This document shows, piece by piece, positions 1 through 3,282 of a DNA stretch of 64,000 bases. The notes beneath the pieces are model-generated. The model made no database searches. It saw only the letters and a list, made by a program, of their open reading frames with translations, and was not told the origin of the DNA. This DNA is from Candidatus Latescibacterota bacterium (lineage in GTDB: Bacteria; Latescibacterota; UBA2968; UBA8231): assembly GCA_963422735.1 (NCBI GenBank), contig OY730476.1:3168001-3232000 (forward strand), read 5' to 3'. Position numbers and translations under genes: made by a program. Position 1 is the first letter of the stretch, and each line of letters starts with the position of its first letter.

Positions 1-2
1 TG

Positions 3-455
3 CCCACGGATGACTTGTCTGGCGAGCCGGAACTGTTCAGTCGTTATTTTGGCGAGCTTTTTCAATGCGTACCTACGGATCATCCGCGTCATCGGGAGGG
101 CTCCATTCAGGAAGATCGGGAGTGTTTGCGTTTCCGCGAAGTAGCCCGCAAGGCCAAGGTGATTTCCGACGACACGCAGGCCGTCATTGCACCCATGCAG
201 GAAGCCTTAGAAGCAGTGGATTCCATCCGCGAGTGTGCCCAAACAGGCAGCTCGCGTTTTACCCGCGAGGATTTGCGCGATTTCCAACGCTTTATGGTGA
301 ATTTGCACCAACGCGATTTTCAGCAATTAGACGCCATGGGCCTGCTTCATCCGCTGCTGCCCGGCATGGAACTGAGGGTGCTGGATAAAGCGGCCTATCA
401 CGACCATCTCGGCGTGATAATTGACCACCGTCCAACCGAGGACTTCTTGCTATGA
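3..455 (+). CDS. cas3: CRISPR-associated helicase/nuclease Cas3, C-terminal fragment (truncated by window start), type I-C
   Basis: Frame is open from the window edge. Sequence resembles the I-C Cas3 C-terminus (F..VA...KVI..DT..VI.P, Q.F.VN, Y....G). Stop overlaps the cas5 start (ATGA). Confidence 0.8.
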   Translation, partial: PTDDLSGEPELFSRYFGELFQCVPTDHPRHREGSIQEDRECLRFREVARKAKVISDDTQAVIAPMQEALEAVDSIRECAQTGSSRFTREDLRDFQRFMVNLHQRDFQQLDAMGLLHPLLPGMELRVLDKAAYHDHLGVIIDHRPTEDFLL

Positions 456-1240
456 AAGACAACCACATACACCTGAGAGTCTGGGGCGACTGGGCCTGTT
501 TTACCCGCCCCGAAATGAAGGTGGAGCGCGTCAGCTATCCGATCATGACGCCCTCTGCGGCCCGCGGCATTCTCGAAGCCGTCTTCTGGGAACCGCAGGT
601 CTCCTATCGCATTGCGGCCATCCGGGTGGTGCAGCGCGGGCGCTGGGCCTCGATTCGGCGTAATGAAGTGCAATCGGTCATCAGCCTGCGCAATGTCGGC
701 CAATGGATGGCACAGCCGGAGAAAGTCTCGCCCATTGAGGCCGGGGGCGGCGCGCCCGACGGCACCCAGCGCAACATGCTGGCACTGCAAGAAGTGGAAT
801 ACATCATCAGTGCCGAGTTGCGCACCACGAGATTGGCCGATCGCCCGACCGACACACCGGTGAAGTATTTCGCTGAATTCAAGCGCCGCGCCGAGCAGGG
901 AAAGTGCTTCCATCGGCCCGCCTTGGGTATGCGTGAATTCGCGGCGGATTTCGAGTGGGTGGACGATCCCCAAACCGCCCTGGAGCAGCGCGCCGCTGAG
1001 CTGGGCACTCATTGGCGGCAACCCGAGGAGGATTTGGGCTTGATGCTCTACGATGTCTTTTCGCCTACCGACCGCGCCCAAGGCTTTCGCTGGAAACGCC
1101 CCGATGAACTGGGAGCCAAGCCCAAGAAAAACACCCCACGTTTTGTCGGGGAAAAGGTCAACCCGAGGGCGTGTTTTTTCCGCGCAAAGCTCGAGGTCTC
1201 CCCTTGCTTCGGTAAGGGGAGCGGATTGAAACTGTGTTGA
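452..1240 (+). CDS. cas5: Type I-C Cas5 (Cas5c/Cas5d); the last 14 codons derive from CRISPR repeat 1 and spacer 1
   Basis: Hallmark motifs VWGDWACFTRPEMKVERVSY, TPSAARGILEA, RRNEV, LG.REF.A.F and DLGLMLYD. After FFRAKLE the frame enters the repeat and stops at TGA 1238-1240 inside spacer 1. Confidence 0.93.
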   Translation: MKDNHIHLRVWGDWACFTRPEMKVERVSYPIMTPSAARGILEAVFWEPQVSYRIAAIRVVQRGRWASIRRNEVQSVISLRNVGQWMAQPEKVSPIEAGGGAPDGTQRNMLALQEVEYIISAELRTTRLADRPTDTPVKYFAEFKRRAEQGKCFHRPALGMREFAADFEWVDDPQTALEQRAAELGTHWRQPEEDLGLMLYDVFSPTDRAQGFRWKRPDELGAKPKKNTPRFVGEKVNPRACFFRAKLEVSPCFGKGSGLKLC

Positions 1241-1447
1241 CACCAATCTCTCGAAGGTGCTCCCGCGTCTCCCCTTGCTTCGGTAAGGGGAGCGGATTGA
1301 AACTCTCCGCGCCCGGCCCGACCTAGCCGACCTCGTGAGTCTCCCCTTGCTTCGGTAAGGGGAGCGGATTGAAACGACTAACACGTCCAGCTCCTGCCAC
1401 ATGCAGATCAGTCTCCCCTTGCTTCGGTAAGGGGAGCGGATTGAAAC
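1196..1447 (+). CRISPR. CRISPR array: 4 identical 37-bp repeats, 3 spacers (34, 35, 35 bp)
   Basis: Repeat GTCTCCCCTTGCTTCGGTAAGGGGAGCGGATTGAAAC at 1196-1232, 1267-1303, 1339-1375 and 1411-1447. The 3' ATTGAAAC gives + orientation. Internal stem CTCCCCTTGC-TTCG-GTAAGGGGAG. Confidence 0.98.
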
Positions 1448-1457
1448 GATTAAAACA

Positions 1458-2753
1458 ATGAGCGTAGAACACCACACTGTTATCATCGTCGGCGGAGGAC
1501 CGGCGGGCCTGCCGTTGGCTGTGGTCTTGGGCGGCTGGCATCCTTTCTTCCGCAACAGCCGCATGTTCGCCGCGCGCTACGCGCCCCTAGCCGGGTACTT
1601 GCAACAGTTCGACCGCACACTGTTGGGGCTGGATATGCGCCATCTCGTGCAGAGCGGCATCAAGCCCGTTGATCTGTTCCGCACCTTGCATCACCCGCGC
1701 CAGCTCTTTGAGGAACTGGACCAAGTCGCCATGGACTTTCGGCGCGGCGAGCCGCTGGACGCGCTGCTCATCAGCCGCGAGCCTGTCGGCGGGTTGTGGA
1801 ACCGAGCACCGCAAAACCTGCTAACCTTGTCGCCGGGTCAGTGGATGGAGTTTGCCTTTTATCCGCTGGTGCAGCACGTCGCAGAAATCGGGTGCGCCTT
1901 AGACGTCAATGCCCTGATCCTCAAGACCGATCTGATCGAGTACTATCACCGCGTACCCGAGCGCTTTGGGGTGGCAGAGCGCATTCGCACCTTGGAGGAG
2001 GTCGAGCGAATTGAGCCACACGAAAGGGGCTTTCAGCTCACTAGTCGGCACGTGCAAACAGGCCTTGAACAACACTATACCTGTAAGTACTTGGTCCTCG
2101 CAACCGGCCAGCGCGGCCGGTTGCGCTCCCTCGGGGTGGAGGGCGAGGACAGGACTTTTGTCACCGCTCGCTACGACAAGCCCGCAGACTTCCCCGGCGA
2201 GCGGGTGCTCGTCGTCGGCGGCGGGCGCTCGGGCGATTGGGCAGCAACCGAATTGCACGACGCCGACAAGCAGGTGTACTACGCCATGCGCCAAGGGCCA
2301 GCGGTTCATTGGCGGCTGATTGACGACAGCCGGCACGGCCTACCCTATTACCATCGCATCGCCGAAATCCTCAAAAGCCGCTCGCCCCGGCTCAAAACCT
2401 TGTACCACACCCATGTGACGCAGATTGCAGAGGGCGGACGGGTCGGGCTGAAAAGGCCCGAAGGAAGCCAAGTGGTGGAGGTCGATCATGTAATCAAGGA
2501 AATCGGCGGCACGGCCGACTATTCGATCTTGCAGGGCTTTGCGCCGCTGACCCTGACGCCCATGCGCGACAACTACCGATTCCAAGTCGATCAAGTACAG
2601 ACCCACGCGCACAACTACGAGTCGATTGACATACCCAACTTGTACGTCGGCGGCCATCTCGCGGCCGGGATCGGACTAGTCGTCATCGCCATGCACGGTA
2701 CTACCTACGCGATCGCCGGGGATATTCTCCAAAAAGAGGGACGGCTCTTGTAA
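1458..2753 (+). CDS. FAD/NAD(P)-dependent oxidoreductase (flavoprotein monooxygenase / disulfide-reductase fold, OSGIN-like)
   Basis: GGGPAG FAD motif, LATG, second dinucleotide motif VVGGGRSG, C-terminal NLYVGG. Confidence 0.85.
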   Translation: MSVEHHTVIIVGGGPAGLPLAVVLGGWHPFFRNSRMFAARYAPLAGYLQQFDRTLLGLDMRHLVQSGIKPVDLFRTLHHPRQLFEELDQVAMDFRRGEPLDALLISREPVGGLWNRAPQNLLTLSPGQWMEFAFYPLVQHVAEIGCALDVNALILKTDLIEYYHRVPERFGVAERIRTLEEVERIEPHERGFQLTSRHVQTGLEQHYTCKYLVLATGQRGRLRSLGVEGEDRTFVTARYDKPADFPGERVLVVGGGRSGDWAATELHDADKQVYYAMRQGPAVHWRLIDDSRHGLPYYHRIAEILKSRSPRLKTLYHTHVTQIAEGGRVGLKRPEGSQVVEVDHVIKEIGGTADYSILQGFAPLTLTPMRDNYRFQVDQVQTHAHNYESIDIPNLYVGGHLAAGIGLVVIAMHGTTYAIAGDILQKEGRLL

Positions 2754-2775
2754 CTTTTCCCCGCCGCCATCGTTA
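2749..2775 (+). promoter_or_regulatory. Probable ECF-sigma autoregulatory promoter
   Basis: TGTAAC-N16-CGTTA directly upstream of the ECF sigma gene fits the AAC/CGT ECF promoter pattern. Confidence 0.6.
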
Positions 2776-2805
2776 GTATAGGCGAAGGACGATGGAAAAA
2801 CCGCT

Positions 2806-3282
2806 ATGGAACGTTTCCGCCGGCTCTGCCAAGAGCACCGGGACCGCATCTACACATTCGCCTTCTACTATACAGGCAACCGCGAGGACGCCGAGGATAT
2901 TACCCAAGAGGTTCTGTTCCGCCTGTGGCACCACGGCCTCCACATTGACGACGAAGGTGTGGCGGCTTGGTTGACCCGGGTGGTGTGCAATGCCTGTTTG
3001 GATGCCCTGCGCCAGCGGCGTCGCTATCGCTCGGTGGTCAGCGCCCAAGACCCCGAGCCGGTCCTACAGCGCACTCCGGCTGCGGGCGATGTGGATCTGC
3101 GTAGGCAGCTGGAGGTGGCCCTTACCCGGCTGGAAAACCCCCTGCGGGAAATCGTCATCTTGCGAGAAATCGAGGGCCTCTCCTACCGAGAGATCAGCCA
3201 GCGCTTGGAGTTGCCCCTCAATACAGTCAAAGTATATCTCTATCGCGGCCGGAGACGCCTCCGCGCCCTTTTGCAGGAATAG
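2806..3282 (+). CDS. ECF RNA polymerase sigma factor
   Basis: Region 2 (DAEDITQEV, WL.RV..N.CLD.LR) and region 4 (LSYREIS..L..PLNTVK..LYRGR). Confidence 0.93.
   Translation: MERFRRLCQEHRDRIYTFAFYYTGNREDAEDITQEVLFRLWHHGLHIDDEGVAAWLTRVVCNACLDALRQRRRYRSVVSAQDPEPVLQRTPAAGDVDLRRQLEVALTRLENPLREIVILREIEGLSYREISQRLELPLNTVKVYLYRGRRRLRALLQE

Follow-up and report, generated by a model that had tools for sequence, protein, structure and literature searches.

The 64,000-nucleotide (nt) stretch of DNA analysed here (the window) comprises positions 3,168,001 to 3,232,000 of the one-contig genome of a Candidatus Latescibacterota bacterium (G000; 4,953,052 bp). At its left end it carries a small type I-C CRISPR locus with CRISPR-associated (cas) genes: the 3' end of cas3, a cas5 gene of the Cas5c type, and an array of four repeats and three spacers. 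The cas5 gene runs directly into the array. Its open reading frame (452-1240) encodes 262 residues, and the cas5-derived part ends in FFRAKLE; codon 249 of cas5 and repeat 1 both begin at base 1196, and the frame closes inside spacer 1 with TGA (1238-1240). Repeat 1 and spacer 1 encode 14 new C-terminal residues (VSPCFGKGSGLKLC) that replace the native residues 249-267. There is no non-coding DNA between cas5 and repeat 1, and the leader is absent. A first-pass annotation, made from the sequence alone, had described the fusion, and its description is borne out as written. The features of the locus and of its right-hand flank are as follows:

1..455, plus strand: 3' end of cas3, which starts upstream of the window at about G000:C1:3166236; the gene is intact
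452..1195, plus strand: native-derived codons 1-248 of cas5c (Pfam PF09704, TIGR01876)
1195..1196, no strand: deletion junction, last cas5 base and first repeat base, bridged by contigs of sequencing runs X2, X6 and X9
1196..1240, plus strand: new C-terminus of the open reading frame, 14 codons and then TGA at 1238-1240
1196..1232, plus strand: repeat 1 (37 nt), hairpin fold
1233..1266, plus strand: spacer 1 (34 nt)
1267..1303, plus strand: repeat 2
1304..1338, plus strand: spacer 2 (35 nt)
1339..1375, plus strand: repeat 3
1376..1410, plus strand: spacer 3 (35 nt)
1411..1447, plus strand: repeat 4, the last, identical to the other three
1448..1456, plus strand: GATTAAAAC, 9 nt that imperfectly duplicate the repeat tail GATTGAAAC; absent in the relative G018
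1458..2753, plus strand: flavin-dependent oxidoreductase gene of the pyridine nucleotide-disulphide type (Pfam Pyr_redox_3, 6.1e-25)

The four repeats are identical, 37 nt long, and separated by spacers of 34, 35 and 35 nt. In its predicted fold (-18.5 kcal/mol) the repeat RNA has a 10-bp stem capped by a UUCG loop, preceded by a 2-nt 5' overhang and followed by a single-stranded tail of 11 nt (CGGAUUGAAAC). This shape agrees with the type I-C criterion drawn from passages of PMC8524198, the fold and the cleavage both being predictions here. The Rfam family CRISPR-DR9 (RF01322) gave at best 20.7 bits (E 0.07, at 1337-1375), below its gathering threshold of 45 bits. Folding of 1180-1470 returned the repeat hairpins only. 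A promoter and terminator scan of 1-3000 gave counts at the level of shuffled sequence and none between cas5 and the array, though such a scan may not suit this phylum. In their own genome and in the loci compared, spacers 1-3 match nothing besides themselves, apart from one partial match of spacer 2 (26 nt, three mismatches, E 0.42), which we take as chance; the first 25 nt of each have no exact match in viral contigs.

The Cas3 protein has HD, DEAD and Cas3 C-terminal domains in Pfam and scores above the NCBIfam cut-offs for cas3_core (TIGR01587) and cas3_HD (TIGR01596); it is 80% identical to residues 1-737, the full length, of Cas3 from G018, a genome of the same genus, in a single tblastn segment. 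The cas5 product matches Pfam Cas_Cas5d at 1.5e-29 and TIGR01876 at 1.6e-33 (116.6 bits against a cut-off of 85). Cas5c is the nuclease of precursor CRISPR RNA, as the first-pass annotation and a passage of PMC8524198 both state. Among the marks of a type I-C system, the locus thus has cas3, cas5c and the repeat shape; cas8c, cas7, and cas4-cas1-cas2 with the leader are missing.

What has been lost can be reconstructed from G018. At the same chromosomal site this genome has, in order, cas3 (737 residues), cas5 (267), cas8c (650), cas7 (328), cas4, cas1, cas2, a leader, 70 repeats and the same oxidoreductase gene, which is the type I-C gene order that the first-pass annotation had cited. In G018, 5,765 nt separate the first repeat from the junction-equivalent codon; by this layout at least about 5.8 kb is gone, together with some number of repeat-spacer units. 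A WYL-WCX regulator gene directly upstream of cas3 (L001:15112-16092, plus strand) survived the deletion. Over the whole G000 genome, PF09709 (Cas8c, E<=1), TIGR02589 (Csd2) and PF01930 (Cas4) had no match, and tblastn with the G018 proteins (E<=0.01) found no cas8c, cas7, cas4 or cas2; the cas5 query returned cas5 (88% over residues 1-250), and the cas1 query only a 32%-identical gene. The sole Cas1 of G000 is encoded at 905.5 kb, in a type III-B (Cmr) locus 2.26 Mb away. The earlier statement that Cascade, the adaptation genes and the leader are missing is correct in this sense: cas8c, cas7 and cas4 are absent genome-wide, and cas1 and cas2 occur only in the type III-B locus.

The right-hand border is alike in the two genomes. 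In G018 the last repeat ends 1 nt before the oxidoreductase ATG, so that no room is left for a promoter of the gene's own between array and ATG; in the window the ATG (1458) lies 10 nt past the last repeat. The oxidoreductase gene, which also follows the G018 array, lies outside the CRISPR locus and marks the array's conserved border on the right. Among the spacers of the 70-repeat array in G018 (L017, reverse strand) there is one pair of identical neighbours.

When Cas5c residues 1-248 were searched against 41 genomes (G000 and 40 relatives), matches were found in nine, G000 included. Two are close: G018, with 88% identity, and G025, from another family of the class, with 86%. In both of these cas5 extends for 19 further codons and is followed by cas8c. 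Counts over related loci refer to the best 80 of 109 Cas5c relatives in the genome collection. The array lies 4,732-9,268 nt past cas5 in 45 of these 80 and is adjacent to cas5 in none; the other 35 have no array in the available DNA, 31 of them with less than 7 kb downstream.

Public sequencing runs bear directly on the junction. Among 24 runs listed, 20 contained part of the stretch and eight at least half of its sampled words; four of the 24 (X2, X6, X8 and X9, from four studies) were examined contig by contig. Three bridge 1195/1196 without differences, with contigs covering 1103-1225 (X2), 983-1225 (X6) and 880-1225 (X9), and come from studies P2, P3 and P6. Contigs built from 31-letter words end about 30 nt into the repeat, and so prove the joint between cas5 and the repeat, not the spacer that follows. 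Spacer 1 between two repeats is also covered, by X6 (1203-1296) and X9 (1196-1296). Depths of the flanking and junction contigs in X2 are alike (1,613, 1,346 and 1,593). The deleted form is present in runs of 2013 and 2023, in three studies. None of the runs is recorded as RNA, although X9 may be.

The fourth run, X8, carries an intact allele. One of its contigs (6,164 nt) matches 468-1196 with eight differences (about 99% identity; six of the seven differences listed are at third codon positions), and past 1196 its cas5 frame reads DSTLACHPDA, the native tail of all close relatives. Another contig (483 nt) has a leader-like sequence and then the repeat, the last 30 letters closely resembling the end of the G018 leader. 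Among the X8 contigs listed none covers spacers 1-3 of G000, which has no bearing on the ancestral array. Intact and deleted locus coexist in nature as near-identical alleles, and since an allele of about 99% identity has an intact cas5 3' end, the deletion is strain-variable and recent.

The Cas5c encoded here is without the 19 native C-terminal residues (249-267). The native tails read ...FFRAKLQ-DSTLACHPDEIEILEPQGA in G018 and ...FFRAKIE-DSTLACHPDEVEILEHKEA in G025, and among the 80 relatives the tail motif is FF.A...CHP in 62 and the canonical FF.A..G[VIL] in 16, with two cut or masked. In an AlphaFold2 model of G018 Cas5c, built from a 56-sequence alignment (mean predicted local distance difference test score (pLDDT) 87.8, predicted template modelling score (pTM) 0.82), residues 241-260 have pLDDT values of 95-96, with strands at 241-248, kept here, and 251-253, lost here. 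The alignment of Cas5c suggested in the first-pass annotation therefore places the loss at residues 249-267, strand 251-253 included, and the lost tail is conserved and, as modelled, well ordered. The G018 orthologue aligns to solved Cas5c chains at 1e-32 to 1e-39, including the RNA recognition motif (RRM) part. Lys138 is at least 90% conserved in Cas5c alignment A1; the catalytic Tyr and His positions appear, by eye and with the triad mapped loosely, as Phe and Tyr in this subfamily. According to a passage of PMC8524198, such Tyr and His replacements occur in Cas5c. The shortened Cas5c may still be active as a nuclease.

In our view the locus is, with good probability, the scar of one recent, strain-variable deletion in a type I-C locus, and a dead remnant. 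The event would have removed the last 19 cas5c codons, cas8c, cas7, cas4, cas1, cas2, the leader and probably most of the array; what survives is cas3 with the WYL regulator gene before it, a cas5c damaged at its C-terminus, and the three-spacer array. Because the genome has no Cas7 or Cas8c, and hence no Cascade, the remnant should be incapable of interference. The mini-array would now be expressed only at the 3' end of the transcript of cas3 and cas5. Cas5c, if still active in its shortened form, would be expected to cleave each hairpin at its 3' base; in repeat 1 the site follows 1221, 16 nt before the new stop, so that cleavage would leave a message without a stop codon.

Two points tell against a dead remnant. 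Neither cas3 nor cas5c over its first 248 codons shows damage, and both frames remain open; the case for loss of function is thus built on the absent partners and the lost tail, and not on decay that can be seen. Runs of 2013 and 2023 moreover both contain the deleted form, which is therefore stable in nature; this also fits a remnant that is tolerated or useful.

A useful remnant had been among the options of the first-pass annotation, as a minimal unit of cas3, cas5 and array; cas3, the shortened cas5c and the mini-array would be kept for the RNA endonuclease activity of Cas5c, for example on its own message or on host messages with single repeat copies. The open frames of cas3 and cas5 and the persistence of the deleted form from 2013 to 2023 favour it, as do five single copies of the repeat family that lie in or next to housekeeping genes of G000 (nhmmer E 7.6e-10 to 1.3e-4). 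Yet a strain of about 99% identity has the intact locus, the layout occurs in none of the 80 related loci, and the deletion took away a conserved, well-ordered strand of Cas5c. The single copies, for their part, have unpaired stem changes and occur also in G011, G009, G005 and G013, where Cas5c has no match. On these grounds the retained unit is not supported, and we regard it as very improbable. Misassembly at the repeat, also raised in the first-pass annotation, can practically be dismissed: repeats of 37 nt can mislead assemblers, but contigs of three runs from three studies cross 1195/1196 and reach at least 30 nt into the repeat, the X2 depths are alike, and the genome is a single contig.

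As a type I-C remnant, the locus is of a kind already known. Complete type I-C systems (Dvulg; for instance those of Desulfovibrio vulgaris, Pseudomonas aeruginosa and Neisseria lactamica, whose solved Cascade structures are 7KHA, 8DEJ and 8G9S) are alike in their cas3 with HD and helicase parts, in Cas5c, and in their repeat, where a stem-loop stands between a 2-nt 5' overhang and an 11-nt tail that ends in ATTGAAAC; they differ in having the cas8c, cas7, cas4, cas1, cas2 and leader that are missing here. The repeat here is 37 nt long with a 10-bp stem, whereas passages of PMC8524198 give 7-nt stems for four type I-C repeats, and an insertion ahead of the last hairpin and the CHP motif in the tail set this Cas5c subfamily apart. 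The degraded loci of Escherichia, Shigella and Salmonella described in PMC2886076 likewise show partial cas deletion, a cas3 remnant and a short array, and few repeats remain, according to that paper's passages on the subject, where the system is a relic. Those loci are of subtype I-E and from another phylum, and the passages concerned do not describe base-exact breakpoints at a repeat.

The deletion itself was the first of the options in the first-pass annotation, and the full locus of G018 and the intact allele of X8 uphold it; what did not carry over is a choice between the two routes offered there, half-integration by Cas1-Cas2 and recombination through a self-spacer. The left end lies after cas5 codon 248 and the right end at the first base of a repeat. 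Native cas5, in relatives and in the X8 sister allele, likewise has a G at the junction position (a GAT codon): across the junction, marked by a slash, X8 and L032 both read ...CTCGAG/GATTCT.... As this G is common to both parents, the breakpoint may fall just before or just after repeat base 1. The X8 leader ends ...CCAGC ahead of the repeat, and G is the sole base certainly common at the junction. The breakpoint lies on two of the 72 positions of the repeat-spacer unit, an outcome of about 3% under a uniform model. In rough terms, we hold an integrase-linked event and chance end-joining each to be quite possible at somewhat under an even chance, recombination with a self-spacer to be improbable, and any other mechanism to be most improbable.

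When Cas1-Cas2 integrates a spacer, a 3'-OH becomes linked on each strand to the repeat's 5' end. In the top strand of the window the 3' end of cas5 is joined exactly to repeat base 1, at the phosphodiester that Cas1-Cas2 attacks, and the flush joint, with only one nucleotide (G) certainly in common, points to a boundary-specific mechanism. In an integrase-linked event the chromosomal cas5 3' end would have been joined to repeat base 1, or an integration nick would have turned into a break; such an event is a real possibility that stays somewhat below even chances. No Ku gene was found in the G000 genome, so that classical blunt end-joining would be without visible machinery. Several observations count on the other side. 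No result here shows integrase action, and a literature search limited to listings turned up no paper describing integrase-made deletions of cas operons. The cas5 tail weakly resembles the repeat in its 5' part (local score 7), so that an accident guided by homology is conceivable. In one 31-letter word of X8 the repeat is preceded by GAG; a spacer with this ending could have supplied 4 nt of microhomology.

Chance illegitimate recombination, which would have ended at the repeat boundary through slippage or alternative end-joining on 1-4 nt of microhomology or on weak similarity, is a credible account that we would also put a little short of even. Partial deletions of cas operons are common, as passages of Touchon and Rocha 2010 (PMC2886076) report; a G is common at the junction, and the words of GAG plus repeat are present in X8; and the junction is among the best 6-7 sites of the cas region of about 8.3-8.8 kb for similarity to the first 14 nt of the repeat. 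Against it are the prior of about 3% for the two boundary positions of the 72-nt unit, the register of the weak similarity, which is 2 nt out with respect to the junction, and the lack of any Ku gene found. A deletion guided by homology proper was considered and rejected: depending on query length, 6-47 sites equal or better the score of the cas5 tail and repeat, which is in any case 2 nt off register.

The remaining route is recombination between cas5 and a spacer derived from it (about 1161-1195, in the same orientation), which would have cured autoimmunity. It would explain a seamless joint at a spacer-repeat boundary without microhomology, and its parts are on record. Recombination between spacer and target was described by Varble et al. 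2019, as cited in a passage of PMC8616872, and recombination over a spacer length would likewise give a junction flush with the repeat; in the known case, as described there, a phage and an array recombine in transduction, whereas a deletion within the chromosome would be needed here. Escape from self-targeting through the loss of cas genes, interference genes included, is documented in Wimmer and Beisel 2020 (PMC6990116) and Vercoe et al. 2013 (PMC3630108), but no self-targeting spacer is present or inferable here. As the first-pass annotation had noticed, a TTC protospacer-adjacent motif is not found ahead of any 33-37 nt protospacer whose last base is 1195: the triplets for 33, 34, 35, 36 and 37 nt are AAC, CAA, TCA, GTC and GGT, with the proviso that TTC is the general type I-C motif and may not be that of the subfamily. 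The cas5 contig of X8 is unbroken over 1161-1196, which implies that no second copy longer than about 31 nt exists in that population. Among 1,114 spacer entries from relatives (the G018 array being counted twice), none matches cas genes or G000, apart from one 21-nt chance hit, and the junction 20-mer in metagenome contigs belongs to seven unrelated stretches with 27-33% ungapped identity upstream. We judge this route improbable.

The five single repeat copies of G000 can be described in turn. One lies between pup and prcB in the Pup-proteasome operon (L005:9592-9628, minus strand; G000:C1:1543592-1543628), with its tail overlapping the prcB start codon; it has five differences from the array repeat and a perfect 10-bp stem. 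The spot was compared in 11 other loci of the genus, of which L029 gave no row. A full copy is present in G011, G009 and G005, with stem changes that are unpaired and not compensating, and a shortened hairpin in G041 and G013; the spot is empty in G022, G044, G021, G018 and G003, where pup and prcB are 8-9 nt apart. A second copy lies in recA (L006:9508-9542, plus strand; G000:C1:3389508-3389542), in frame within the C-terminal coding tail, to which it adds about 11 residues. Among 10 aligned genomes of the genus, it is full in G000, G018, G045, G006 and G019, whereas G021 and G009 have part of it and G001, G022 and G044 none; the empty site has GT (left) and TGAAC (right) in common with the ends of the element.

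Three further copies lie at L003:9950-9986, L004:9603-9639 and L005:13181-13215, all on the minus strand. One lies behind an A+T-rich stretch and 1 nt ahead of a secreted-protein gene's ATG; one adjoins a gene pair of ATPase and DUF4276-like type, named from the first residues; and one is just past a signal peptidase I gene, also named from its first residues, and after this copy the ATTGAAA tail recurs three times in tandem as 9-nt units. The repeat tail tends to recur as tandem degenerate 9-mers after terminal or single repeats (window 1448-1456, L021-L025, L123-L124); besides the copy in the window, examples are GATGGAAAC ahead of prcB and, for the copies in recA of G006 and G021, GATTGAAACGATTGAAAC. 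From these sequences we read the single copies as probable old relics and not as targets of Cas5c. Solitary repeat units and RNA anti-CRISPRs such as RacrIC1 (Camara-Wilpert et al. 2023, PMC10651486; Faure et al. 2019, via PMC8616872) resemble, as far as the passages go, only these single copies, which are lone type I-C-like repeats outside arrays; units of the RacrIC1 type are described there from viruses and mobile elements, whereas those of G000 sit in chromosomal housekeeping operons and look decayed.

The type III-B locus of G000 is separate and seemingly complete (L019:11036 to L002:12023; G000:C1, about 896,036-909,023). It has cmr2-cmr3-cmr4-cmr5, a 771-residue cmr6-cmr1 fusion, and genes for a Uma2-family nuclease and a CARF protein, with cas1 and cas2. 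Its array has 14 repeats, different from the type I-C repeat, and the last two spacers are identical. A Cas6 gene lies right after the array (L002:11118-12023; PF10040, 2e-10); the profile PF01881 alone had found no Cas6 in G000. The idea that Cas5c is kept to process the type III-B array was rejected on the strength of this Cas6, which belongs to the Cmr locus itself.

The Cas5c subfamily of the window is 77-91% identical across 20 assembled genomes, and 83-91% in 16 of them (L032-L050, L073). These are named in their records as Latescibacterota, Rhodothermales, Binatia, Opitutales, Bryobacterales, Terriglobia and Alphaproteobacteria, and the repeats of the 20 loci differ by paired stem changes. 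At the sequence level this suggests a recent horizontal spread of one type I-C variant.

For annotation, the consequence is that the cas3-cas5-array remnant is not to be counted as a working type I-C system. It adds one more decaying CRISPR-Cas locus, and the sole aspect that is out of the ordinary is the position of the breakpoint. With both alleles present in nature at about 99% identity, an exact reconstruction is possible from long reads of the intact allele. That deletions of a cas operon are made or initiated by the operon's own CRISPR integrase, and that base-exact scars between a cas gene and repeat base 1 represent a general route of loss, is a tentative proposal that we consider on the unlikely side. 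If it is true, and breakpoints are enriched at this boundary across CRISPR types, the loss of cas operons would have a self-inflicted mechanism, which would bear on the patchy distribution of CRISPR-Cas.

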